Under the pieces are notes generated by a model. The model searched no databases, was not told the DNA's origin, and was given only the letters and a program-made list of their open reading frames with translations. A program made the position numbers and the translations under genes. 64,000 nucleotides of DNA from a virus: the UHGV virus genome UHGV-1440165. The stretch is one strand, 5' to 3'. Positions 1,419 through 54,901 of the stretch are shown here, in pieces. Within the stretch, counting starts at the first letter, position 1. Each line of letters opens with the position of its first letter.

Positions 1419-2464
1419 TCTTTATCACCCAGGAACTTAGGATCAACAATCTTGCGGTCAACCGGGGAATGGGTGAGCGCGACGTTCAGGGACTGGTCAC
1501 TGACGTTATCCAGATTGATGAGCTTACCACTCAGCTTGCACCACAGGCAGTATGCCATATCCAGAATTAACCCGGCATCGGCTCCGTGTTCGTGTAGAGT
1601 TTTCATAACGTCTAACCATGATGAACCTTTGGAAATCACTTCAACGATATCGGCGAACATGACTCGGATACGTGTTTGATTCCCAGGGACACCAAACAAA
1701 ATAGGGGAGAAGTAAGAACCCGTGTGGAATACACTGGTGGCAGGAGTAATTTTACCCAGCTGCTTCTGGCTGACTTCATTGTTGTAATAATGAAGGTTGT
1801 TAGAGAAGAGGCGGTACAGCCCAACTTCCACATTCAGCACCCTAGCGACGATCTCTTGGAGGATGGAGAATTCAATGAAATTGATTGAACTCATGCCCCA
1901 CAGAACATCCTGAGATCGGTTGATGACTGTTAGGTTCAGGCGACCATCCACGATAGAGAACAAAAGGGCTAGGTTACACACCATATCCTTGGTCTTTGGT
2001 TCCCCGCTTTCGTTGGACCAGATCAGACCAGAGTCCGAGTCAAGAGCAGGGTCATAGATGGTGAGGTATGCTTGGCGACTGTTTGGATTTTCTTTCAAGC
2101 GGCGAATCACACTGTCAATCTGACCATAGGCGTACAGGCGCGGTCCATAAGCAGCTCGCCATGTAGTGCCGTTATCAGAGAAGTTGACAGCGCGAGGTAA
2201 TACACGGGAAAGGAACTCAACGTCATTGCGCCCAGCAAGCACCCAGAAAGTCTCACCAATGGCAGCAACAGCAGAAGAGTTGCGCCCTTCCACGGATAAC
2301 CAACGGTCGCGTGGGTTCTGCACGGTGATCGTCACACCGTCAAGGAAGCGGGTGCCGTCAGTGTTGATCTCCGCGTTACCAGGATCAGATTCAATCCCGT
2401 GCTCACGGATAGCCAAGACAGCCTGTTTCAGCATGTCATTGTTGTTTATTGCTTTGATTTCCAT
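1415..2464 (-). CDS. thymidylate synthase-family enzyme, possibly a pyrimidine (dUMP) hydroxymethylase
   Basis: ThyA-like motifs (NPNSRQAYLTIYDP; nucleophile Cys in DMVCNLAL; RSQDVLWG); 349 aa is longer than canonical ThyA; RBS GGGAG upstream; TAATG coupling to neighbouring kinase. Confidence 0.6.
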   Translation of the reverse strand: MEIKAINNNDMLKQAVLAIREHGIESDPGNAEINTDGTRFLDGVTITVQNPRDRWLSVEGRNSSAVAAIGETFWVLAGRNDVEFLSRVLPRAVNFSDNGTTWRAAYGPRLYAYGQIDSVIRRLKENPNSRQAYLTIYDPALDSDSGLIWSNESGEPKTKDMVCNLALLFSIVDGRLNLTVINRSQDVLWGMSSINFIEFSILQEIVARVLNVEVGLYRLFSNNLHYYNNEVSQKQLGKITPATSVFHTGSYFSPILFGVPGNQTRIRVMFADIVEVISKGSSWLDVMKTLHEHGADAGLILDMAYCLWCKLSGKLINLDNVSDQSLNVALTHSPVDRKIVDPKFLGDKE

Positions 2465-3126
2465 TAATCGATACTCCCAAAATCACGACAGAGGAATGCC
2501 ATCACAGCCTGGTCTACTGTTAGACCGTGAGACTTCATCATACCTGCAGCCACCGTAGGGAACAAGCCCTTATGGCGCTGGCGGTGGTCTTGAACGCGCT
2601 CCCACTTCTCGACCACCAGGCTTTCATTGAAGTCCGCGCCGCCGTTGCGTGATTTAACACGGGCGATGCAGGTTTCAAGAGGCGTGTCCATGAAGAGCAC
2701 AACCAGTTCGCGCGGTGGGCGCGTCAGGCGAGGGATCCAGGAACTCAGCAGAGTTGAAGGAATGATGCCTTCGAAGATCACATCGTATCCCAGATACTCT
2801 GGCTGATCAGCGATGCTCAGGGCGAAGAGCATTTGTTCAGTATCCTTCAGGGAATCAACTCCCTTGGACTTCGACTTGTCATATTTGCCGATGCAGACCA
2901 CATTGAAAGAAGGGCAGACGGTCAGCATAATCTTTCCGTTGTGGGTCACGACATATGCCTGAGGATCCCTCTCCGCCAGCTGGGAAGGCACGGTAGATTT
3001 ACCGCTACCATTCGAGCCTTTGACGTAATAGAGTTGCCCTCGTGCTGGGTATATGCCCTTGACGACAGGCGGCTTAAAGAATGTGTGGACGGGGCGCTTC
3101 AACAGCCCCTTCAGGGAATAGGACAT
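2464..3126 (-). CDS. P-loop kinase (Walker A GSNGSGKST), candidate nucleotide/DNA 5-hydroxymethyl kinase
   Basis: Walker A motif; ORF-track start is TTG, ATG with GGAG RBS at 3126 preferred; translationally coupled to TS-family gene. Confidence 0.5.
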   Translation of the reverse strand: MSYSLKGLLKRPVHTFFKPPVVKGIYPARGQLYYVKGSNGSGKSTVPSQLAERDPQAYVVTHNGKIMLTVCPSFNVVCIGKYDKSKSKGVDSLKDTEQMLFALSIADQPEYLGYDVIFEGIIPSTLLSSWIPRLTRPPRELVVLFMDTPLETCIARVKSRNGGADFNESLVVEKWERVQDHRQRHKGLFPTVAAGMMKSHGLTVDQAVMAFLCRDFGSID

Positions 3127-3201
3127 AGACTGCTCCAATAAACAAAAGGAGCTGCTATTATAGCAGCCCCTTCATCTATTGAACAGCTTCTGAACTTAAA
3201 T

Positions 3202-5852: not shown

Positions 5853-5860
5853 TATAAATA
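5853..5860 (+). promoter_or_regulatory. T4-type late promoter box TATAAATA
   Basis: Exact TATAAATA ~35 nt upstream of the GTG start at 5895; gp55 late sigma homologue encoded in window. Confidence 0.5.
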
Positions 5861-5894: not shown

Positions 5895-6842
5895 GTGGAA
5901 GACTATCGCAATTTCATCACCCAATTGTTGCAGCGCGGGATATCGCGGAAGAACCGTTTCCGCGTCACCATCCCCCTGCCACCGGGCGTGTTCGATTCAA
6001 ACGCCACCCTGAGCAATGACGGGGATGCTTACAAATCAAGTTCATCATCGTTTGGCGACTTGTTTAAGGAGTCAGCCCGTATTGTAAACGCTTTCTTTGG
6101 AGGGACAAACCAGACGGCGCGTTCCCTTCAGATGATGTGTATGGTCGCAGGTCTGCCGGGGGTCGGCGTCGACACCACCCCAATGAACAACAACGGCAAC
6201 CACATCAAGATGCCAAACAACAAGTCCAACGTCGATCTGGATCTAACATTCCTCATTGCCAACGACTACTATGAGAAGTCGGTCATGGACAAATGGAAGA
6301 ATCTGATCTTTGATCCGTACACAACTAAGATGGGTTATTACGAAGACTTCGTGACTGACATCTGTATCGAGCAGATGGATACAGAAGACCAGGTTGTGCA
6401 CCGGGTGTACATCGTGGAGGCGCATCCGATCAACTTCAGCACGATTGACCTTGACAAGGGTGCAACAGATCAGTTCAACCAATACAACATCACATTCTCT
6501 TACAACAAAGTGTTATCGGAGACTGAGTATGAAACACGCAGCCTTGCCAGCGATTTTCTTCCTCTTGGGATTACTGACGCTCTTGCCAGTGGAGATTGGG
6601 AAACTGCGGCCTCAAAAGCCGGGCAACTTTATCGCAAGGTGAAGGAAGGCAACTTCACAGGGGAAGCGCTCCTGGCGTACAAGCAGCTGGATCAACTGGT
6701 AAACAATCTGGCTGGCATCAGCCTGCAGGACTTCGAGCGCATCTCTATCGGCATCTCTCGTGACATCATGGGGAATGATAACCTGACTGCAGCTGAAAAG
6801 ACCAGCCTGCTGGGTATCCTCCAGGACGTCATGGGCAAATAA
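5895..6842 (+). CDS. baseplate tail-tube family protein (gp48/gp54-like)
   Basis: N-terminal NRFRVTIP resembles gp19/gp54 family NLFQVEIS; GTG start with AAGTGGAG RBS; late promoter upstream; terminator downstream. Confidence 0.45.
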   Translation: MEDYRNFITQLLQRGISRKNRFRVTIPLPPGVFDSNATLSNDGDAYKSSSSSFGDLFKESARIVNAFFGGTNQTARSLQMMCMVAGLPGVGVDTTPMNNNGNHIKMPNNKSNVDLDLTFLIANDYYEKSVMDKWKNLIFDPYTTKMGYYEDFVTDICIEQMDTEDQVVHRVYIVEAHPINFSTIDLDKGATDQFNQYNITFSYNKVLSETEYETRSLASDFLPLGITDALASGDWETAASKAGQLYRKVKEGNFTGEALLAYKQLDQLVNNLAGISLQDFERISIGISRDIMGNDNLTAAEKTSLLGILQDVMGK

Positions 6843-6864: not shown

Positions 6865-7255
6865 CTTCTGAATACTTCTTGTATTCTTGTCTAGTTCCGT
6901 ACTCCACTATGCGATACAACAGAATCACAACAGCATGGGACACCGCCAAGAAGGTGTAACCTGCCCAAGCAAGCAGAATGAAAATGATGATCGCCTTCAC
7001 AGTTCTTGCAACCCATTTGTACGGCTTCCCCAACTCTGTCATCTTCAACAACGCGCTCGGGTCGGTCTTGGCATGGGAAGAAACGCAGAGATAGAGAAAA
7101 GACAGAACTATCAGCAGAATAATATTCAGACAAGTAACTGCTACTGCGACTGTCGGGAAAGGCGTTATTCCCAATGGTGCGATAGCGGATAGAAGAGATG
7201 AGACCAACAATAAGAAGATCAGTTGTCGAAGAACAGACAAGAACAAAGTTTTCAT
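6851..7255 (-). CDS. integral membrane protein (about 4 TM segments)
   Basis: Hydrophobic segments throughout 134 aa. Confidence 0.55.
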   Translation of the reverse strand: MKTLFLSVLRQLIFLLLVSSLLSAIAPLGITPFPTVAVAVTCLNIILLIVLSFLYLCVSSHAKTDPSALLKMTELGKPYKWVARTVKAIIIFILLAWAGYTFLAVSHAVVILLYRIVEYGTRQEYKKYSEDKAP

Positions 7256-7269
7256 GGTATAGATGCCTC

Positions 7270-7296
7270 AGAGAAAGCCCTCCGAAGAGGGCTTTG
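7270..7296 (-). terminator. rho-independent terminator (AAAGCCCTCTTCGGAGGGCTTT) after SSB gene
   Basis: Stem-loop immediately downstream of 7301. Confidence 0.6.
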
Positions 7297-7300
7297 TGGT

Positions 7301-8344
7301 TTAGTTGTTTTTCAGGAACTGCTCGAATTCTTCAATTGAACCAGTTTCTTTCGGGTTCGGTTGAGCACCCGGATTGTTCACAGCGGCCTGGGACGGCTGA
7401 GCCTGCTGTTGGTTCAGGCTGTCTTGAGCAGTTGGCTGCTGATTGACAGACTGTTGAGCCGGAGCCTGGTTGGTAGGGGCATGGGCCATAGTGGCCGCAC
7501 CACCTTCAACCAGAGGCTGGCCGTCAGGGATTGCCAGCACTTTGCGCAGACGTTTTTCCAGATCTTCGTAGCTCTTGAAGTTCGCCGGATTGAAGAACTC
7601 AAACAGGCTGTGTTCACGAGACCAAACGTCTTCCATGTAGGCTTCGTCTTCGCTCAGTGGAGCCGGAGCAGCCCAGCTGACGTTGGAGAAGTTGGCCACC
7701 AGACCTTCCCAGTTCCCGAACTTCTTCTGCTCGCCGAAGAGCTTGAGGTTCAGGTTCGCACCTTCCCACAGATCGAACGGGTCGAATTTAGGGTCGGTTG
7801 GGAACTTAGGATTCTGCGCCTGGTCCAGGATTTTCTTGATGGCGTTACCAAACTCCAGCAGGAAGACCTTGCCGTTGTTTTCCGGTACGTTGACATCTTC
7901 GATCACCAGGATGTTGGCGTAGTATTTGGTGTCCGGCAGACGTTTCTTCAGCACGTCCTTCAGCTTTTCGTCGTTCGTTTCTTTCTGTTGCGCCCACAGC
8001 GGACGGTCATGGTCACGCACCGGATCGTCGTTGCCGAACGTCTGAGGTGAGTTCTCAATGTACCAACCACCAGCGCCCTGGAACTGGTGCTTCATGATCA
8101 TGGCGCAAGGGGTCAGGATCTGATCTTTATCGATCGTACCTTCTTCCTGTGCCTTGAGGTCTACCAGCGGAACTGGCAGGAAGCGGATGGTGTTCTGAGA
8201 GATACCATCTTTGTTCCACGTCCATTTCCAGATGCGAGGATCCTTCTGGAAACCAGACTTCTGACCTTGCTGAGCCAGACGCGCTTGCATCGCGTCGGTC
8301 TGCTGGCCACGGGACTGTTTCAGACGATCGAATAAATTACCCAT
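7301..8344 (-). CDS. single-stranded DNA-binding protein (T4 gp32-like)
   Basis: NTIRFLPVP matches gp32 AVIRFLP region; size 347 aa; acidic/Q-rich C-terminal tail. Confidence 0.75.
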   Translation of the reverse strand: MGNLFDRLKQSRGQQTDAMQARLAQQGQKSGFQKDPRIWKWTWNKDGISQNTIRFLPVPLVDLKAQEEGTIDKDQILTPCAMIMKHQFQGAGGWYIENSPQTFGNDDPVRDHDRPLWAQQKETNDEKLKDVLKKRLPDTKYYANILVIEDVNVPENNGKVFLLEFGNAIKKILDQAQNPKFPTDPKFDPFDLWEGANLNLKLFGEQKKFGNWEGLVANFSNVSWAAPAPLSEDEAYMEDVWSREHSLFEFFNPANFKSYEDLEKRLRKVLAIPDGQPLVEGGAATMAHAPTNQAPAQQSVNQQPTAQDSLNQQQAQPSQAAVNNPGAQPNPKETGSIEEFEQFLKNN

Positions 8345-43518: not shown

Positions 43519-44025
43519 TTATAGGGTAACAAGTGATACGGTAAAAACCATCGTCCCGTCAGTTGCCATTTTTCTTGAAACTGGTATGACGCGAGGCTGG
43601 CAGAATATCCATTCTTTCTCCATGGACGCCAAGTCCAGCATATCCATTTCTGATTCATCGCCTTTGTTCACAAATTTTTCTAGAGAACCATAGACATTAA
43701 GCCCCTCCGGGAGTCCGTTTCGATGTTTGTAACATATGCGGGCGACAGCTCTGGTTCCATACGATTTAGAAAATTGTTTGGCCACATGCTTCAGTTCACT
43801 GAAGCTAAGACAAGAATCCCATGTCTGAAACATGTCTCCTCGTTCAAACATCATCTCCAAACGCGCAACGTCCTCTTTAGGCAACCCGCGATAAAGTGTG
43901 GTCATCTGCGGTTCGCGTAATTCTCGCACCAGACCACGGATGGCAGGGGAAACAGTGCCAGGGCGCATGATGTGGGACTTATCATGGACGAGGTAAAATA
44001 AATCTTGAATTTGTTGATCGGTCAT
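43519..44025 (-). CDS. mono-ADP-ribosyltransferase, T4 ModA/ModB-like
   Basis: R motif TLYRGLPKE (T4 ModA PLWRGVPAE), S-x-S region DSCLSFSE, ExE-like SMEKEWIF, in ModA order and spacing. Confidence 0.55.
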   Translation of the reverse strand: MTDQQIQDLFYLVHDKSHIMRPGTVSPAIRGLVRELREPQMTTLYRGLPKEDVARLEMMFERGDMFQTWDSCLSFSELKHVAKQFSKSYGTRAVARICYKHRNGLPEGLNVYGSLEKFVNKGDESEMDMLDLASMEKEWIFCQPRVIPVSRKMATDGTMVFTVSLVTL

Positions 44026-45126: not shown

Positions 45127-45168
45127 GTCACTTCTCCCAAAGAAGGGCGGGTTGCCCCGCCCGTTGGA

Positions 45169-47397
45169 TTAGATTTTGATCTCTTTCTCTGCCAGTTCGG
45201 CAGTGACCTTGTACTTCACGCCATCCACTTCAACTTCCATGGTTGACTCTTCCAGGTCGAGGTCGGTGAACCAGCCATGGCCAGCAACGATACCATACAC
45301 CACTTTAGACAGCGTCTTGTTCAGGGCGCGGACTTCAGTGATGGCCGCCTTGGCAGCAGCGTCGATCCAGTTTTCGATCAGCTGTTTCTGTACGGCTTCA
45401 GGCACAGCAGTAATAGCCGGGGACTTCACGAATGCGTCGTATTCTTTCAGTGCATTGGCGATGAACATATCACCCGCATTGAGAGCCTTTTTATCAGCAA
45501 TCTTCTTCTGTACCGCAGCGATGGACGGCAGAGAAGACGCCCCGGCGATCTTAACGTTCAGCTCACGGCTCATGTAGACGTCCGTGGAGTCCTTCAGCTC
45601 GGTCTTCGGTGAGAAGCCATAATCGCGGATACCAACACTAGACAGGTATTCTGCGGCCGCAGCGCCGTACTGAATAGCCAGACCTTTGGCATTACCCTTA
45701 CCAACCAGGGCGTCGCGATAGAACTTCAGTACCTTCTGCTTGCCTTTCAGGGCTTCCAGGCGAACGTTGTCGGCAAAGAACTGTGCAGCACTGATGTTCT
45801 TGACCATCGCACGGTTGACCAGCGGTACGCTTTCCAGGTTCAGAATGAACACTTCCGGACCAACGAACACGTGGACGCCCATTTCGATCAACTTCTGCAC
45901 AACTTCGATATCAGCCTTGAACGGCAGGGTCTTCACATTGATGATGCCGTCTTTGACGATGGTGTAGTTGCGCCACTGGAATGTGTCCAATTCTTCGGGT
46001 AGACCGAACTTCTTCTGAGCGAATTCGGGCACCGCCACAGTTCCATGCTGGATTGTACGCACACTGATGTTCGGGCGCTCAGAGTTATAGACCAGGTCGC
46101 TGATTGAGATCACGCCCAGATCGTTAGCAGGTTCAAACGACGGTGTCCACTCTTCGTGCTCAGCCAGCTTGAGAGCGAGGGCTTTACGCTCTTCTTTGGA
46201 CTTGGCGTTCGCGATTTCTTCCGCCAGCTTGTCTTCGGTATCATCGGCTTTCTGCACAGTACCGCGACCAATGCTCTTGTAGGAGAACATCGGGTGCTTG
46301 GTGGCAACAGACACGCCAGCTTCGGCCAGGTACGTCAGCACATCAACGACAGTGGTCGCATCTTCAGCCGGAACCATATTGTAGTCGATACCGTCCACGC
46401 CGCGCAGCTGATCATCAACGATGGCCTGGGTCAGATCAACTTTGATGTTGGAGTAGTCCTGCTTGGTGAAGCAGTTGCTGTACTGTTTGATGAAGCGGAC
46501 GTCGCCCGTTTTCTTCAGCGCAGCCCACACCAGGTCGGCGTCCATGATGTGTACGCCGTAGAACGCCAGCACGTATGCTGCCTGGATGTCCGTCAGCGCA
46601 TCAAGCTGGTCGATCATGTTAGGGTTGACGACCCACAGCTTCGTGACGCTCTCAGGGATGCTCACGTGGCCGATAGGATGGTCTTCATCCGGCTGTACCG
46701 CCAGCACGGTTGCTACGCCGTTTTCAACGTAGATGGCGTGAGTGTACACCACAGGAACGTCAACACGAACCTTCGGCACCGAGGACTTCAACACGTTTTC
46801 CAGCTCAGTCTGATATTCAGTCTGTCCTTCGGCGAACACGTGAGTCGCGCCGGAACGCTCGGACATCTGGGCCAGGAGTTCGCGGTTACAGTACCAGCCG
46901 TATTCGATAAAGGTGATGTTATCGAAAACAAATGGCAAGGTTTCGGCGACGGCCAGGATTTCATTGGAGCGCCAGCAGTTGTCATAACCATCGGTCATGA
47001 ACGCCAGGTTGTTGACGTAGCCGGGTTTCTTCAGGCTACGCGCAGTATCTACCGCGAGACCCAGGGGTTCGACGAAGCCAGTGCAACCGGATGGTTGCAG
47101 GAAGCGGTCGATCAGTTTGTTCAGCTCGCTCAGGTCAGACGCAGCACTGACCTGGCGGCCAGCGAACACAGTACCAAAGTCGCCACGGGATGAGAAGTAC
47201 AGGAGGCTCACTGTGTCTTCCGGTTTCACCAGGGAAGGCAGGTTCTCCTTCAGGTGCTTACGGACTTCAGGGAGCGCCCGGTACATGGAACCGGAAATGT
47301 CCACAACGATTACATGGTTGGACGGGGCAGCAGTCGCAACCGCATTCTTAAACTCCAGGGATTCAATCATCGTTATTGCCTTCTTCAGGGTTGTCAT
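45169..47397 (-). CDS. large von Willebrand factor A (vWA) domain protein
   Basis: N-terminal MIDAS motif VVDISGSM; ~740 aa; start at MTTLKK with GGAAGGTGAGG RBS. Confidence 0.55.
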   Translation of the reverse strand: MTTLKKAITMIESLEFKNAVATAAPSNHVIVVDISGSMYRALPEVRKHLKENLPSLVKPEDTVSLLYFSSRGDFGTVFAGRQVSAASDLSELNKLIDRFLQPSGCTGFVEPLGLAVDTARSLKKPGYVNNLAFMTDGYDNCWRSNEILAVAETLPFVFDNITFIEYGWYCNRELLAQMSERSGATHVFAEGQTEYQTELENVLKSSVPKVRVDVPVVYTHAIYVENGVATVLAVQPDEDHPIGHVSIPESVTKLWVVNPNMIDQLDALTDIQAAYVLAFYGVHIMDADLVWAALKKTGDVRFIKQYSNCFTKQDYSNIKVDLTQAIVDDQLRGVDGIDYNMVPAEDATTVVDVLTYLAEAGVSVATKHPMFSYKSIGRGTVQKADDTEDKLAEEIANAKSKEERKALALKLAEHEEWTPSFEPANDLGVISISDLVYNSERPNISVRTIQHGTVAVPEFAQKKFGLPEELDTFQWRNYTIVKDGIINVKTLPFKADIEVVQKLIEMGVHVFVGPEVFILNLESVPLVNRAMVKNISAAQFFADNVRLEALKGKQKVLKFYRDALVGKGNAKGLAIQYGAAAAEYLSSVGIRDYGFSPKTELKDSTDVYMSRELNVKIAGASSLPSIAAVQKKIADKKALNAGDMFIANALKEYDAFVKSPAITAVPEAVQKQLIENWIDAAAKAAITEVRALNKTLSKVVYGIVAGHGWFTDLDLEESTMEVEVDGVKYKVTAELAEKEIKI

Positions 47398-47550
47398 CGG
47401 CCTCACCTTCCGGATTGACCAGCATGTGTTCAACGAATTCGCGATTCAGCTCAATCTGGCTCATCAGCGCATCCGTCGGAGTAAAGCGGCGGTCGAGGTT
47501 ATCGACACCCGCACGTTTAAATGGTTTGGACATTCCTCGACCTCAAAACA

Positions 47551-47568
47551 GGGGAGTTTCCTCCCCTT
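47551..47568 (-). terminator. rho-independent terminator (AGGGGAGTTTCCTCCCCT)
   Basis: Same hairpin core as 22001..22020. Confidence 0.6.
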
Positions 47569-47574
47569 CAGTTA

Positions 47575-49239
47575 TTAGATTTGTGAGGCCAGTTCTGCCA
47601 CCAGAGGAGCAGCACGAACACGCGCATCTTCCAGAGTCTGAGTGTTGAAGAACTTGCCATCACGGTACACCAGTTGGTGTTGGTTGTCGGCGTCTTGCAC
47701 CTGATCAAAGGTGATGCCGTCAACCAACACTAGTTTACCCTGAGAGTCTTTAATGACTTTAAGGAAACCACGCGCAGACTTTTTAGTCCCGCCTTTGTCG
47801 GTCTTCGGCTCTTTGAAGATCTCGCGGAATTCACCGTTCACCTTACCAGCCGTCGCTTTCACTGCCGTTCCAGTACTGTCACGGGTGTTCATCTGGTAGG
47901 TGTAGGAACCAATACCGAAGACCACGTTAATGGAAGCGAAGTTCCGGCCAGCCAGACGACCAAAGATCTGGTCTTCACGTGCCAATGTGATAGAGTCACC
48001 GTAGATCAGACCGATGTGATCGTCCAACAGGAAGTGGCCAGTCTCAGTTTGAGTACCGCCAAAGATCTCCCACAGGCGCTGAATAGAGCCGACTGCTTCA
48101 GAACGGCTGATGATATTACTGTCGTCTGCCATCAGAGAGTTGATCGTACCTTCGCCTGTGATCAGGTGATAGGTGTTCGTCTCTTCGATGTGGATGACTT
48201 CGGTGCTGCTGGACACGCCGCTGATGTTCAGCATAGCGCGGTCTTTGAACCCCTCGATGCGGTAGCCGCCGACGATGTGAACTGGGTCGCCAGAGTCAGG
48301 GCGGATCACGACTTTGCCGTTGCGTGCCATGATAATGTCTTTCAGGCGAGGGAGATAGTCGTCGATGACCTGCCAATAGTCCCACGCATCCGACACAATG
48401 CTGACGATGCCATCAGGATACACGTCCTGCACCAGGCGACGGAAGGTTTCGAATTCTCCATTCTTCGTACCCATGCACATCACGGCGTGTTCGGTGGCTG
48501 CAACGGAGCCAGCAACGACATAGTCTTCATCGATATCCGCGCCGTAATACTCTTCAACGAAGTCCAGGGCAGGGTTGGTGTCAGTGCCTTTGAAGAACAC
48601 CAGATGGCCAGAACCGGAAGACGCCGCGTCATGCCATCCGCTCATACCACGGAAGGAGAAGTCGTGGCCTTGGTAATCGATGAACCAATGGTCCGGTGAC
48701 ACGCCTGTGGCGATAGCGGCTTTCACCATCAGTGCCTTGTAATGCAGGGCGATGGTGGCGTTCGTCATGGGCTTCCAGATCTCAGAGCTGAACACAGTCT
48801 CCAGATAGTTGGTCAGCCAGTAGAACTCCGGCAAGGTGTTGAACATCACATACACCGGAACGCCATACGGGCACATGGTGCCTTCGGGTAGAGCACGGAC
48901 TTCGATAGGCAGATAACCGAGGTCATGCAGGGCTTCGATATGCTCTGTGCCAACACGACCTGGACCCAGTACTTTGTTCATGCGACGGGCATACTTCTTC
49001 AACACCTTGGCCTTCGGGCGCTGGAAGAACGCTTCGTCAAACAGTTCGTGGAACCAGGTCATGAAACCCTGGATGCCCCAGACCACCACGCCGTTCTTCG
49101 GCAGGTGAGAGTTGAATAATTTGTTGGAACGCGGAGTCCCGTTGGAGAACACCAGCTCACTACCTTCAGGGAACTGATAGATGTGCCCTGATTTGTAGAA
49201 GTCGATTGCATGAATTGGGTCTAAGTGGCGCATGCTCAT
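47575..49239 (-). CDS. nicotinamide phosphoribosyltransferase-family enzyme (NadV/NAMPT-like; candidate NARP1 Namat)
   Basis: Full-length NAMPT-like sequence (554 aa) read from the translation; no single motif checked. Confidence 0.75.
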   Translation of the reverse strand: MSMRHLDPIHAIDFYKSGHIYQFPEGSELVFSNGTPRSNKLFNSHLPKNGVVVWGIQGFMTWFHELFDEAFFQRPKAKVLKKYARRMNKVLGPGRVGTEHIEALHDLGYLPIEVRALPEGTMCPYGVPVYVMFNTLPEFYWLTNYLETVFSSEIWKPMTNATIALHYKALMVKAAIATGVSPDHWFIDYQGHDFSFRGMSGWHDAASSGSGHLVFFKGTDTNPALDFVEEYYGADIDEDYVVAGSVAATEHAVMCMGTKNGEFETFRRLVQDVYPDGIVSIVSDAWDYWQVIDDYLPRLKDIIMARNGKVVIRPDSGDPVHIVGGYRIEGFKDRAMLNISGVSSSTEVIHIEETNTYHLITGEGTINSLMADDSNIISRSEAVGSIQRLWEIFGGTQTETGHFLLDDHIGLIYGDSITLAREDQIFGRLAGRNFASINVVFGIGSYTYQMNTRDSTGTAVKATAGKVNGEFREIFKEPKTDKGGTKKSARGFLKVIKDSQGKLVLVDGITFDQVQDADNQHQLVYRDGKFFNTQTLEDARVRAAPLVAELASQI

Positions 49240-50090
49240 TTTACACGTCCTGTATTTTCAGTTTTGAAAGGAAGACCGTCGGCGGTGATGTTCTCCCACC
49301 AGACAGTGTCGGCATACACAGCATCGTAGATCCCGTCGAAAACAGAGAGACCTTTGCTGAAGATGCCATGGGTAACGAAGAGCGTCATGTGCTTAGGCTT
49401 GTGCTTCTGAAGCTCTTTACCCAGCTCAACAAACGTGCGCCCACCGTCGCAGATATCATCAACCACAACCAGATAGCGGTCTTTGATCAGTTCAGGGTTT
49501 GTAATACTCACCCCAATGATTTCACCAGTCTTGGTGTCACGGTTCTTGTGTCCGTAGACAACAGGAACGCCATCCAATGACAGGCTGAGGGTTTCGGTCT
49601 TCTTCGCCGCGCCGCCGTCAGGGGCTACCAGCACAGCATTGTTCCCACGGATGAACCAGCCCAGATACTGGCGCACGATGTGATCTTGTGGGACCACATG
49701 GACGTTGTTGATCAGGGAAGACACAACATGGCTGTGAGGGTCTTTGATCGCCACGCGGTCAAAGTTCATGTTGTTGATGAACTCAGCCGCCCACTTCACG
49801 GACAGAGGCTCGCCGAAGTCGCAATGGCGGTCCTGGCGAGCATACGGGAAGTAAGGGATATACGCATGGAAGGTAGTCAGACGGTCCACGTTACCCAGGC
49901 CGCGCACGGCGTTTACCAGAAGCGCCAGCTCAATGAAGTCGGCTGATGATTTGATGTGAGCATCAATCACCACGTTCTGGACGTGACCGACAGGGATGCC
50001 AGCCTTTTGGATCTTGATATGTTCCTCACCACCTGGGAAGGTGAAGTGCTTGTAGAACACATCTTGGTCGTTCAATTTCAAACGAAACAT
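49236..50090 (-). CDS. ribose-phosphate pyrophosphokinase-family enzyme (Prs-like; candidate NARP1 Adps)
   Basis: PRPP-binding motif VVVDDICDGGRT; 284 aa; ATGA-coupled to NAMPT-like gene. Confidence 0.75.
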   Translation of the reverse strand: MFRLKLNDQDVFYKHFTFPGGEEHIKIQKAGIPVGHVQNVVIDAHIKSSADFIELALLVNAVRGLGNVDRLTTFHAYIPYFPYARQDRHCDFGEPLSVKWAAEFINNMNFDRVAIKDPHSHVVSSLINNVHVVPQDHIVRQYLGWFIRGNNAVLVAPDGGAAKKTETLSLSLDGVPVVYGHKNRDTKTGEIIGVSITNPELIKDRYLVVVDDICDGGRTFVELGKELQKHKPKHMTLFVTHGIFSKGLSVFDGIYDAVYADTVWWENITADGLPFKTENTGRVK

Positions 50091-51477: not shown

Positions 51478-53496
51478 TTAGAACACAACTTTCACAGTAC
51501 GGTTGAACGAGCCGCTCACCTTCACGAACACGTGGTTGCGTTGGGTGGTAGAGAAGCCCAGTCCGGACAGCTGCTCAGTGCTTGGCTGTACCTTAATCTT
51601 ACTACCTAACATTTCAAAAACCTTACGGTGTTTATCCAGTTCCGGCTTCAGATATTCGTTGTAGAAGCCACGGGTGCCGACCGGGTTGGCACAACCTTCC
51701 AGGATGAAGAACACGTGCTTGTTGCCCGTCTGCTCGCCGTCCCAATGGTTTGGTGAGTTCAGAACCAGTTGCACCTTCTGGAAGACTGAGGTCTTGATAC
51801 CCCAGATTTCCTGGGAGCGAGCGTCGTCTTTCAGGGTCGAACTGATGCCTGTCAATTGTCCAGCGCGGACGTGGAGCACAACAGCCAGGGTGCGGTCTTT
51901 ATGCTTCAGACCGGGATGTGAGAAGCGCTTGGTCTGCCCTTTGTATTCGACTTCAATTTCAAAGCCCATATCGCAGGTTTCACGCTGGCTGAAGTTGGTG
52001 ACATAGAACTCATAGTCGCCATCGCGCAGCTTGCGCTCATCGCTGAAGAAGATGTTCTCGACCGGGCGACGATTTGGATCAATACCGTCCATGCCGTTCA
52101 TGTCGATGTCCAGGGTTGCGCCAGTTGCTGAACGACGGTTGTGGTAATACACATGGTTGTGCAGCGGATCGTTCATGCTCAGGTCCAGGTCATCGTTGTT
52201 GTGCCAAGCCAGGGACACCCGGAGGAAGCTGTCAACGTTGCCACCAGCGGTCTTCACGCGCTCTTTGATGGAGTCAGCCACTTCACCGTTGTATGACCAG
52301 CTGAAGCCGTTGTTCCACTTGAACAGGTTAGGAGCGCCAGCGGTAGCCGGAGCAATCAGAGACATCAGGTTGCCAGTGTGGGAGTTCTCAACCAGCACTT
52401 CCAGGGAATGCGCCTTTGGCAGCACGTTCGTCAGGAAGTCATCGATAGTGATCTCTTCAACCTTATCCAGGGACTTGGTTGGAGTCTTCACTTCAGACGC
52501 CAGCTGAGCAAACGGGTCCATCTTCTTCTGAGCCGCCAGGTCGGCGAACAGAACGTTGTTGATGGTCAGATCGTCATACACGGCATAACGGCGACCCAGT
52601 GAATCGGTCAGACCCAGCGCTTCAACTTCTTTCTGCGCGTTTTCGATCATCGACTTGGTCACCAGCGCAGTTGGGCGCTTGTAGTTCGTCGGAGCTACTT
52701 TGGCTTCGAAAGACTTGACGGCGGTTTCCAGGTCGCGGCCTTCGTTGAGGTCTACCAACAGAGAGCCAATCACGGTATTACGAATGCCGTGAGGGGTATG
52801 ACCGTTCGCACGATAGCCAGTGCGCCAAGCCCACAGAGCGCGTTTCTCTTCTGCAGTCTGTTCGTACAGGGTCTTGTTCACCACGAACGCCTGCACTGCC
52901 GCCTTGTGCTCTTCACCGCGATACAGAGAATTCTGATCAATCAGTTCCAGGACGATTTCGGCCGATTCCAGAGACAGCTCACGCAGACCGCGCTCAAACA
53001 CTTCGATCGCCTGGCGGATTTCACCCTTCTTAGAAGCGATGCCATCAGCGCGCAGAACATAGCTGCCCAGCAGATCGGCATGGAAGTGGTTATAAGTGCG
53101 CACGTTGCCGTCTTTCATTTCGTGATTCGACTCAACGCCGACTTTCTTGGTGTCGTTGAAGTATACGTCGACGATTGCGTGCTGTTTAACATACGCCGAC
53201 AGCGCCGCCGCAACAACATCGTATTCGTTACCCAGCTGAATGCCGTCCCAGATAGTAATCATTTCGTAATCAGGGGTGATGGTGACCACGCCGCCGATGT
53301 TACGGATGAATTGTTTGCAGCAGGTGCAGTCGTGCTCGGTGCGCTCACGGTAAAGCGGGTTAGTGCCCGCAGGGAAAGAAGACAGATACAGATCCCACAG
53401 AGCATCTTTATCGGTGTTGGTCATGAACAGACCAGTTGCTGACATGGCCAGCACGTTGTTGTTTACGGCTACTGCGAAGGGCTTGAATTGTGACAT
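51478..53496 (-). CDS. large hypothetical protein (672 aa)
   Basis: AGGAAG RBS; N-terminal HDCTCC cysteine cluster; no family recognised. Confidence 0.55.
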   Translation of the reverse strand: MSQFKPFAVAVNNNVLAMSATGLFMTNTDKDALWDLYLSSFPAGTNPLYRERTEHDCTCCKQFIRNIGGVVTITPDYEMITIWDGIQLGNEYDVVAAALSAYVKQHAIVDVYFNDTKKVGVESNHEMKDGNVRTYNHFHADLLGSYVLRADGIASKKGEIRQAIEVFERGLRELSLESAEIVLELIDQNSLYRGEEHKAAVQAFVVNKTLYEQTAEEKRALWAWRTGYRANGHTPHGIRNTVIGSLLVDLNEGRDLETAVKSFEAKVAPTNYKRPTALVTKSMIENAQKEVEALGLTDSLGRRYAVYDDLTINNVLFADLAAQKKMDPFAQLASEVKTPTKSLDKVEEITIDDFLTNVLPKAHSLEVLVENSHTGNLMSLIAPATAGAPNLFKWNNGFSWSYNGEVADSIKERVKTAGGNVDSFLRVSLAWHNNDDLDLSMNDPLHNHVYYHNRRSATGATLDIDMNGMDGIDPNRRPVENIFFSDERKLRDGDYEFYVTNFSQRETCDMGFEIEVEYKGQTKRFSHPGLKHKDRTLAVVLHVRAGQLTGISSTLKDDARSQEIWGIKTSVFQKVQLVLNSPNHWDGEQTGNKHVFFILEGCANPVGTRGFYNEYLKPELDKHRKVFEMLGSKIKVQPSTEQLSGLGFSTTQRNHVFVKVSGSFNRTVKVVF

Positions 53497-53611: not shown

Positions 53612-54832
53612 TTATTCAGGTTTCTTCAAACGATCAAGGAGATTGACAGAGCTGCGACCGAGCACAACTTCATCACAGCGCTTCTTGTAAGCACCACTTC
53701 CGTCATAACCGACCTTACCCCGAGGCTTATCTCCCCGTTGAACGGCTTCTACGCAGCGGGTGTACTTGCTCAGTTCACAGAACATGTTCTCCAGCTGCAT
53801 GACGTTCATACACTGATCTTCCGGGGCTTCAGCCGACCAGAACTGCTCCCGGACATAACCATAGTCCCCGTAAATCGAATCCTGGTGGTCACGCAGCCAG
53901 AAGATACATTCTTCATGCGTCATGCCGTCCTTGTTCAGGAACAACAGGTCGATCCCAGCGCGGCAACCCGGTCCAGCGATAGTGAAATGGTTCTCACTGA
54001 ACGGATACTCAGGAATGTACGTGAAGTCCACCCAGATCTGATAGGCCAGGAATGGACCCAAGCCTTCGATTTCGTCGTACATGGCCTGGTAGACTTCATC
54101 CGGAGATTCGCATTCCAGCAGCCGCTCGAAGTAATCAGGGTGCTTGTTGACGAATGCCCTCAGAGAACGGATGACGCGCATCGGCATGTACGGTTCCCAA
54201 CCCTCAATGGTGTAGAAGTCCGGCTCTGCTTCAGCAATTGCCTTCGCTTCTTTATAATCCATATTCTGGGTTGAACCGTCTTTGCAGATCAGATTCACCA
54301 TCATCCCACCGAAGCGCTGCTCCTTGTGGTTGACAACCAGCTCAGGGAAAGCCAGGCATTGCTTCAGGCCGCCCGTGTTGAAAGCATTGGTGAAGACTTT
54401 GCCGCCGTTGGCCTCGAACTTCTGTAAACGTTCGCGGGTCGCGTCAAGGTTGATCTTGGCGAAGTCGGAGATCGTCATCGCGCCGCCGATAGCCTGGATC
54501 GGATCCCAGAGGTTAAACATGCGGAACAACACGCAGTTGAACATCTTATCCGGCATAGACAGCGCATCGTTGTTAACGATGTTGTTGATTAGGTTGAGAG
54601 ACTGCCTGTCGTGCTCTCTCCGGACGTTGCAGAACTTGACCTGCCGTAGTATGGCATTATCCGTCCAAGGAGCAGGAAGACGCTGGACGTCCTTCTTAAC
54701 GTGGATCTTGTATCGCTCGCTCATCCATTCGTAAGAAAGACGACGATGAAACGGACTGAGCACGGGCTTGGCGGACTTGATTTTATCTTCGCGGACACCA
54801 CAATAAGGGATGTCACGGGCTTTATCTTTCAT
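53612..54832 (-). CDS. hypothetical protein (406 aa), candidate DNA-modification enzyme
   Basis: Start MKDKAR with GAGGA RBS; family not confirmed. Confidence 0.5.
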   Translation of the reverse strand: MKDKARDIPYCGVREDKIKSAKPVLSPFHRRLSYEWMSERYKIHVKKDVQRLPAPWTDNAILRQVKFCNVRREHDRQSLNLINNIVNNDALSMPDKMFNCVLFRMFNLWDPIQAIGGAMTISDFAKINLDATRERLQKFEANGGKVFTNAFNTGGLKQCLAFPELVVNHKEQRFGGMMVNLICKDGSTQNMDYKEAKAIAEAEPDFYTIEGWEPYMPMRVIRSLRAFVNKHPDYFERLLECESPDEVYQAMYDEIEGLGPFLAYQIWVDFTYIPEYPFSENHFTIAGPGCRAGIDLLFLNKDGMTHEECIFWLRDHQDSIYGDYGYVREQFWSAEAPEDQCMNVMQLENMFCELSKYTRCVEAVQRGDKPRGKVGYDGSGAYKKRCDEVVLGRSSVNLLDRLKKPE

Positions 54833-54901
54833 GGTATCCTCACAGAATACGAAAACAGAGGCCATTATAAGCCTCTGCTGTTTAGTGAATAACTGGTTGT
54901 C

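Follow-up and report, generated by a model that had tools for sequence, protein, structure and literature searches.

An ArnB/Sec23-24-type vWA protein with an intact predicted MIDAS and a conserved C-terminal module, encoded without partner genes in Ackermannviridae phages

What does a large von Willebrand factor A (vWA) protein do in a phage that encodes no AAA+ partner for it, and do the genes on either side reveal its role? The question is posed by a minus-strand gene of the virus genome UHGV-1440165, which we analysed over a stretch of 64,000 nucleotides (the window, to whose positions all coordinates refer). We find that this is a real, strongly conserved phage gene, that its product joins an ArnB/Sec23-24-type core with an intact predicted MIDAS (metal ion-dependent adhesion site) to a family-specific C-terminal module, and that it is independent of the neighbouring NAMPT/Prs pair. 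Tentatively, and with somewhat less than even confidence, we read the protein as a stand-alone, cytoplasmic, Mg2+-dependent protein-binding adaptor that is neither structural nor late. The gene and the parts of its product, as far as they can be placed, are:

45169..47397, minus strand: coding sequence of the vWA-family protein (PHROG 2426), complete, 742 amino acids plus stop (open reading frame list, translation and full-length PHROG match)
47353-47367, minus strand: N-terminal strand, residues 11-15, probably part of the same beta-sandwich as residues 206-258
46783..47322, minus strand: vWA domain (Rossmann-like alpha/beta), residues 26-205
47284-47307, minus strand: predicted MIDAS residues D33/S35/S37, within VVDISGSM (residues 31-38)
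47080-47082, minus strand: predicted MIDAS residue T106
46990-46992, minus strand: predicted MIDAS residue D136, inside the invariant DGYDN
46624..46782, minus strand: predicted beta-sandwich, residues 206-258
46408..46623, minus strand: predicted helical bundle, residues 259-330, with the highly conserved motif GDVRxIKxYxNCFTKQDYSN
45172..46407, minus strand: family-specific C-terminal module, residues 331-742

The minus-strand open reading frame (ORF) spans 45169..47433, and its ATG at 47397 is preceded, 6 nt upstream, by the Shine-Dalgarno sequence GGTGAGG. The product (81.8 kDa, isoelectric point (pI) 5.2) has a full-length match to PHROG 2426, a family of unknown function (1225 bits; positions 2-736 of a 736-position profile). 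A search for a signal peptide or hydrophobic segment found neither (the Kyte-Doolittle maximum over 19 residues is 1.5, and the N-terminus MTTLKKAITMIESLEFKN is not hydrophobic), there are only four cysteines (105, 141, 170 and 309) and no cysteine cluster, and the defence-system hidden Markov models of PADLOC matched neither the query nor its Paraburkholderia homologue. A gene on the plus strand at 45169-47397 was rejected, its translation being broken by stops. Two antisense ORFs within the gene, at 46156-47193 (plus strand, 345 amino acids) and 47081-47578 (plus strand, 165 amino acids), seem "conserved" between phages by phmmer and BLAST, but solely as shadows of the sense frame, which is conserved; they are not genes.

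By tblastn, homologues occur in 504 phage records, all but ten of them (494/504) covering at least 80% of the query. Identity to the query is 66-97% in Ackermannviridae, about 48% in RB43/KP27-type Straboviridae, 35% in Pseudomonas phage pf16, 26% in Bacillus phage PBS1 and about 23% in Rhizobium T4-like phages. The surrounding 6.2 kb are 90-92% identical to Agtrevirus-type phages of Salmonella, Shigella, Escherichia and Enterobacter and about 85% identical to Kuttervirus; judged by sequence, the window is that of an Ackermannviridae (Aglimvirinae-like) phage. The dN/dS of the gene is 0.085 in comparison with a Dickeya phage and 0.11 with ChubbyThor, values that point to strong purifying selection, and a published comparison of Vi01-like phages counts it in their 114-gene core (PMC10892097, Table 5). 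Since many GenBank copies are already labelled "vWA domain-containing protein" (the query is 83-97% identical to annotated homologues), the domain call itself is not new and the find itself is ordinary; our search of the literature found no publication on the function of a phage vWA protein of the PHROG 2426 type.

The match to the Pfam vWA model PF00092 barely clears its threshold (24.6 bits against 23.8, residues 29-191), and the predicted model shows the Rossmann-like alpha/beta fold of about 180 residues that defines the vWA superfamily. Within it lies a complete predicted MIDAS, with DxSxS in the beta1 loop, the threonine in the alpha3-alpha4 loop and the aspartate after beta4. D33, S35, S37, T106 and D136 are invariant in an alignment of 42 homologues (35-93% identity), and remain so to 20% identity once the PBS1, Rhizobium, pf16 and metagenomic copies are added (19-sequence alignment). 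In integrin I domains, ITIH and other vWA proteins, the MIDAS metal captures an acidic side chain. That the whole MIDAS is invariant across the family argues that metal-mediated capture of such a side chain is the function under selection here as well, in keeping with a published summary of the vWA domain as a "Mg2+-dependent peptide-binding chaperone" (PMC9503650).

Beyond the vWA domain, the predicted model has one strand ahead of it and five behind, followed by helices at residues 259-327, an order that fits the ArnB/Sec24 architecture. The flanking strands form one sandwich in the model, with the vWA domain inserted into it, so that the domain probably splits the beta-sandwich as in ArnB and Sec23/24; D299 and F310 in the helical-bundle motif are invariant. 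Fold searches with the model, which covered PDB-based libraries, matched Sec24 (1m2v and 3eh2) over 301-307 residues, 4fx5 over 296, ITIH1 over 271, ArnB (8s05) over 269 and ArnE (5a8j) over 264; further matches included pilus-tip adhesins, and TFIIH p44/Ssl1 and INTS14 were among those to the vWA part. On the strength of the model, residues 1 to about 330 can be firmly classified as an ArnB/Sec23-24-type core, its helical bundle being putative. In Sec24, the sandwich and helical bundle form the docking platform for COPII cargo. A vWA domain inserted in a beta-sandwich is common to 4fx5, ITIH1, ArnB, ArnE and Sec24, to which the ArnB- and Sec24-type proteins add the helical bundle, and in ArnB the sandwich and bundle are the docking platform for the ArnA zinc finger (PMC12852372).

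The likeness to each of these relatives is nevertheless limited. Sequence identity to ArnB and ArnE, the Sulfolobus archaellum regulators, and to 4fx5, a Catenulispora vWA protein, is only 11-16%; ArnB stops after the helical bundle (at about 380 amino acids), whereas the phage protein runs about 410 residues further, and unlike the ArnB system it has no ArnA-like zinc-finger/FHA partner, kinase or phosphatase encoded nearby. Compared with the COPII subunits Sec23 and Sec24, it lacks the N-terminal zinc finger and any detectable gelsolin-like domain, keeps its MIDAS intact and has no membrane-coat context; a search of PDB-based fold libraries with residues 206-742 found no Sec23/24 or gelsolin match. 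Proteins of the VIT-vWA or sortase-target kind are more distant still in setting: ITIH (ITIH1, 6fpy) is secreted and has a VIT domain and a different C-terminus, whereas the phage protein is without a signal peptide, and its sole NCBIfam match, to the sortase-target vWA family TIGR03788, scores 23.8 bits against a cut-off of 551.

Residues from about 331 to 742 form a confidently modelled module that has no detectable relatives in the libraries searched. The model places a beta-rich domain at about 421-535, long basic helices at 537-587 and 626-705 (the two segments have a pI of 9.3-9.8) and a C-terminal beta-hairpin at 719-741. No Pfam, NCBIfam or PADLOC model covers the residues beyond the vWA domain; Pfam searches at E<=1 with the query and 42 members yielded nothing there beyond stray matches in single members (vRNAP_dom at 0.031, CHASE5), phmmer and profile searches of the PDB matched the vWA part alone apart from a chance Sm-protein match at E 0.81, and the fold searches returned no relative. 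This module is nonetheless conserved to the same degree as the vWA domain, and its R332, Y373, N443, R476 and D483 are invariant to 20% identity. A charged helical insert at about residues 384-415 is dispensable, as it is missing from the pf16, PBS1, TM30 and betaproteobacterial copies.

A HMMER search with residues 206-742 against 1.84 billion cluster representatives returned 999 clusters (at 50% identity). Nearly all of the best 150 are 680-823 amino acids long, with the module starting at residue 160-320 or thereabouts; about a dozen are shorter (375-611 amino acids) and are probably truncated predictions. No other N-terminal domain was seen among these 150, whose N-terminal regions were not scanned for vWA, and 120 listed homologues align across nearly the full query, vWA region included. 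From these alignments, the fusion of vWA domain and C-terminal module appears to be fixed in the clusters examined.

The usual ATPase partner of such proteins is missing here. The MoxR-vWA, CobS/CobT and BchI/BchD pairs likewise contain a vWA domain with a MIDAS and are presumed to capture peptides or proteins, but neither the window nor any homologous locus examined encodes the AAA+ partner that defines them, and their domain order and C-terminal regions are unrelated to those of the phage protein. None of the ten neighbours scanned (Pfam and PHROG) is an AAA+ gene. A Walker-A scan of the 64-kb window, with Pfam run on most matches, returned the 5-hmdU DNA kinase, PhoH, a gp49-like protein and two ORFs without a Pfam match; another Walker-A ORF (572 amino acids) has homologues annotated as helicase or type III restriction res subunit. 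These scans revealed no MoxR/CobS-type gene in the window, nor is there a MoxR-like gene in the flanks of eleven distant homologues with annotated neighbours, where the only P-loop matches were weak ones to small AAA_16-like ORFs. Nor does any other gene travel with the family: an all-against-all comparison of the flanks of 12 loci found no partner conserved family-wide, an HD-domain gene and a 132-amino-acid ORF being confined to the betaproteobacterial copies, and no conserved zinc-finger neighbour. An ArnA-like zinc-finger partner was considered and dismissed as coincidence: one candidate is a zinc-finger gene that lies some 3.6 kb upstream in Ackermannviridae, the other an unrelated C4 zinc finger near the TM30 copy, and the two show no homology to each other and are not conserved elsewhere. 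The absence of partner genes is firm. [quoted passage not shown]

On the gene's own strand, its upstream neighbours are a gp49-like protein and the Prs-like and NAMPT-like genes, the last two both spanned by PHROG 12872; downstream are an ACP, small ORFs and a fragment resembling the C-terminal region of the RNA-polymerase ADP-ribosylase PHROG. The features next to the gene are:

49236-50090, minus strand: Prs-like gene
47575-49239, minus strand: NAMPT-like gene, overlapping the Prs-like gene by 4 nt
47550..47567, minus strand: hairpin and U-tract immediately downstream of the NAMPT-like stop (RNA fold -15.4 kcal/mol, z -2.0; not listed by the consensus scan, and so the weaker evidence)
47363..47533, minus strand: small upstream ORF of 56 amino acids (ORF list), overlapping the vWA start by 35 nt, with a strongly acidic tail ...PEGEADDNPEEGNNDD
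45145..45162, minus strand: terminator-like hairpin that separates the vWA stop from the ACP start, GGGCGGG-GCAA-CCCGCCC and then UUCUUU (consensus scan; RNA fold -19.2 kcal/mol, z -2.35)

The hairpin at 47550-47567 has the Prs/NAMPT pair on one side and the small ORF with the vWA gene on the other. The small ORF has homologues in ChubbyThor gp159 and in the C-terminal part of Dickeya HQ81_0083, where it is fused to an upstream ORF; it has no Pfam match and no counterpart in the flanks of RB43, pf16, PBS1 or TM30, is conserved in Ackermannviridae only, and may be a lineage-specific partner or a mere neighbour. As a side observation, its acidic tail (PEGEADDNPEEGNNDD) is the sort of ligand that a MIDAS site would bind, in an ORF that is absent outside Ackermannviridae.

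Taken together, the features of the core would suit an adaptor along the following lines. Residues 1 to about 330 would provide an ArnB/Sec23-24/ITIH-type core of vWA domain, split beta-sandwich and helical bundle; the intact MIDAS would hold a divalent cation whose coordination sphere is completed by an Asp or Glu side chain of the target; the sandwich and bundle would offer a second docking surface, as in ArnB and Sec24; and the fused module of about 410 residues would give a second function, be it effector activity, oligomerisation or binding of a second ligand. Neither a dedicated AAA+ ATPase nor a conserved phage-encoded partner would be required, the gene would probably be expressed alongside early/middle replication and host-takeover genes, and the function would be independent of the neighbouring NAD-reconstitution and ACP genes. 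We infer the metal-dependent capture of a ligand, the cytoplasmic location, the expression class and the type of target, which may belong to the host or to the phage.

Of the other ways to read this locus, the one that its layout invites, and that the earlier note had put forward as speculation, is that the protein acts with the NAMPT/Prs pair (in NAD+ reconstitution) and/or the ACP, for instance as a scaffold or regulator. The NAMPT/Prs and vWA genes are indeed adjacent and on the same strand here and in Agtrevirus, Kuttervirus and Klebsiella (Menlow-type) relatives, and the ACP directly follows the vWA gene in those Ackermannviridae loci whose annotation was read. However, the distributions are uncoupled: 1889 phage records contain a NAMPT-like gene, as against 504 for the vWA family, and most of the 1889 belong to groups for which no homologue was listed by the vWA search; NAMPT at >=90% identity is found in only 86 records against 217 for the vWA protein at >=80%. 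In RB43, pf16, PBS1 and Rhizobium TM30, both neighbours are missing and the vWA homologue sits among unrelated, mostly small hypothetical genes; when the flanking ORFs of these four and of the Paraburkholderia contig were compared with the window ORFs by phmmer, the vWA gene alone was in common. In Klebsiella phage phiKp_13, the NAMPT and vWA genes are more than 90 kb apart, and in Dickeya phage phiDP23.1 the ACP and the vWA gene (94% identity) persist beside a NAMPT reduced to a 333-bp remnant (7118-7450 in the Dickeya locus), with no Prs gene annotated, which suggests that the Limestonevirus-type lineage recently lost the NAD+ reconstitution pair. Hairpin terminators flank the vWA gene on both sides, NAMPT/RPPK are variably present among Agtrevirus phages (PMC11721090), and NARP1, the counter-defence operon that the Prs-like/NAMPT-like pair presumably represents in place of classical PRPP/NMN synthesis, is described as a self-sufficient two-gene operon (Adps and Namat) with no mention of a vWA protein (bioRxiv 10.1101/2024.02.11.579819). 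As a third component of NARP1, the vWA protein would be expected to co-occur and be co-transcribed with the pair, and instead the distribution is uncoupled and a hairpin with U-tract lies between them. The vWA gene is thus independent of NAMPT/Prs, and the wider link that includes the ACP appears largely refuted by phyletic distribution, leaving joint action with these neighbours scarcely credible. A place in the virion, as a low-copy or ejected protein or as an adhesin whose vWA domain binds a host-surface or periplasmic ligand in the manner of pilus-tip adhesins, fares hardly better and is very improbable. It could draw on the structure matches to pilus-tip adhesins and ITIH, on the sortase-target family behind the sub-threshold NCBIfam match, and on virion proteomics of a related phage, Sajous1 (Kuttervirus), where the vWA homologue gp185 gave one spectrum in CsCl-purified virions (PMC10892097, Table 6). 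The adjacent ACP also gave one, which suggests carry-over, and two abundant virion proteins in the same table gave 196 and 311; the vWA protein is not a major structural protein, contrary to what the earlier note had named as grounds for abandoning its view, and could at most be packaged at low copy. The T4-type late-promoter motif (TATAAATA) has three exact copies in the window, where chance would give 0.5. They lie at 5853, 11119 and 35868, each on the plus strand, and two closely precede plus-strand ORFs, of which one (5895-6842) is baseplate-like. Such a layout suggests that late transcription follows a T4-like logic, the late genes occupying the strand opposite to that of the replication and accessory genes. 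None of the motifs precedes the vWA unit, which lies on the opposite strand among non-structural genes; the RB43 copy, too, stands within a run of small same-strand ORFs, and the lack of a signal peptide or hydrophobic segment also speaks against export.

Three further explanations remain. The protein might serve a host-encoded AAA+ ATPase of the MoxR type (such as RavA or MoxR) as co-chaperone and aid the assembly of virions or large complexes, as in the archaeal virus ATV and group 2.2 jumbo phages: a vWA protein whose MIDAS is intact commonly has a MoxR ATPase as its partner, and for such pairs, which are known from phages and archaeal viruses, a role in assembly has been proposed (PMC7824862). 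We regard this as decidedly unlikely, given that neither the window nor the eleven homologous flanks hold a MoxR-like gene and that the vWA gene lies outside the structural/late block; hosts that span Enterobacteria, Bacillus and Rhizobium also make a common ATPase partner unlikely. A little less unlikely is a substrate-recruiting enzyme, in which the C-terminal 410 or so residues are a new catalytic domain, modifying or cleaving, for example, a host protein or nucleic acid that the vWA/MIDAS part delivers. The conservation of the module on a par with the vWA domain, its five residues invariant to 20% identity, the fixed fusion and a confident model that matches no known fold would all accord with an enzyme, but no His or Cys in the module is invariant, no catalytic motif can be recognised there, and neither Pfam nor the PDB gave a match to an enzyme. 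A DNA-associated factor resembling Ku or TFIIH p44, serving DNA ends or repair/replication complexes, is the least plausible of the three and very improbable. Ku70/80 combine a vWA domain with a beta-barrel and a helical arm, an arrangement that the phage protein may call to mind. The p44/Ssl1 and INTS14 structure matches, the two basic C-terminal helical segments and a gene neighbourhood rich in DNA-metabolism genes lean towards such a factor, and the structure searches with the model lent the Ku-like hypothesis no support. The protein-binding adaptor remains the reading we prefer to any of these.

As to what the results mean, the protein is now a better-characterised conserved hypothetical protein and not a new mechanism. 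What stands out more is that virulent phages combine an ArnB/Sec23-24-type core, free of any ATPase or zinc-finger partner, with a large, conserved C-terminal module lacking relatives in the libraries searched, and that the family is spread broadly but patchily across unrelated large myoviruses; the protein would be an ArnB/Sec23-24-type module that lost, or never had, its usual ATPase or zinc-finger partners. The gene is a core gene of Ackermannviridae, phages that are used for biocontrol and therapy, and the results guard it against mis-annotation by guilt-by-association and make it a clean experimental target. It is conceivable, if rather unlikely, that the C-terminal 410 or so residues are an undescribed fold that works jointly with the MIDAS face and so enables large virulent myoviruses to capture a conserved bacterial protein and neutralise or re-purpose it. 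If so, the family would constitute a novel type of vWA effector that acts in host takeover or counter-defence without an AAA+ ATPase, and it would be common to Ackermannviridae, RB43/KP27-like T4 relatives, pf16, PBS1, Rhizobium phages and an uncharacterised betaproteobacterial element.

A pattern scan of 185,579 species genomes found six loci with vWA-family copies. One of them, on the 178-kb contig NZ_JBHSCL010000010.1 of "Flagellimonas marina", is syntenic with Escherichia phage RB43 (most proteins are about 50-98% identical, the vWA homologue 90%) and looks like an RB43-like phage genome that entered a bacterial assembly via contamination or co-culture. Full-length copies also occur on two near-identical contigs of rumen metagenome-assembled genomes and on one contig of a deltaproteobacterial one. 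The copies of the last two loci, Novimethylophilus and Achromobacter, together with those of a Paraburkholderia contig and a metagenome contig, are 60-70% identical to one another; all four of these betaproteobacterial-type loci have a gene with an HD_4 domain about 5 kb downstream, three of the four share the 132-amino-acid ORF, and the Paraburkholderia and metagenome contigs both hold Q_salvage, PolyA_pol/CCA-adding and Metallophos genes as well. PHROG searches with ten flanking proteins of the Novimethylophilus and Achromobacter loci gave no match. The betaproteobacterial copies thus lie in an uncharacterised element, perhaps jumbo-phage-like or integrated, which likewise lacks a MoxR partner.

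Several other genes in the window merit mention. A 5-hmdU DNA kinase (PF18748, E 1.8e-108) at 2464-3138 and a protein carrying the helical domain of 5-hmdU DNA kinase (PF18723) at 53612-54865, both on the minus strand, are thymidine-hypermodification genes, of a kind described for Ackermannviridae. The 168-amino-acid ORF at 43519-44025 (minus strand) matches only positions 1270-1425 of the 1480 in PHROG 832 (RNA-polymerase ADP-ribosylase; E 1.1e-14), and would be either a stand-alone domain or the remnant of a large Alt-like protein. A 672-amino-acid protein at 51478-53496 (minus strand) has a full-length match to PHROG 1735 (function unknown) and no Pfam match; some GenBank records call it a "putative DNA-directed RNA polymerase", a label that looks unsupported, and Sajous1 gp179, annotated in the same words, gave three spectra in virions (PMC10892097).

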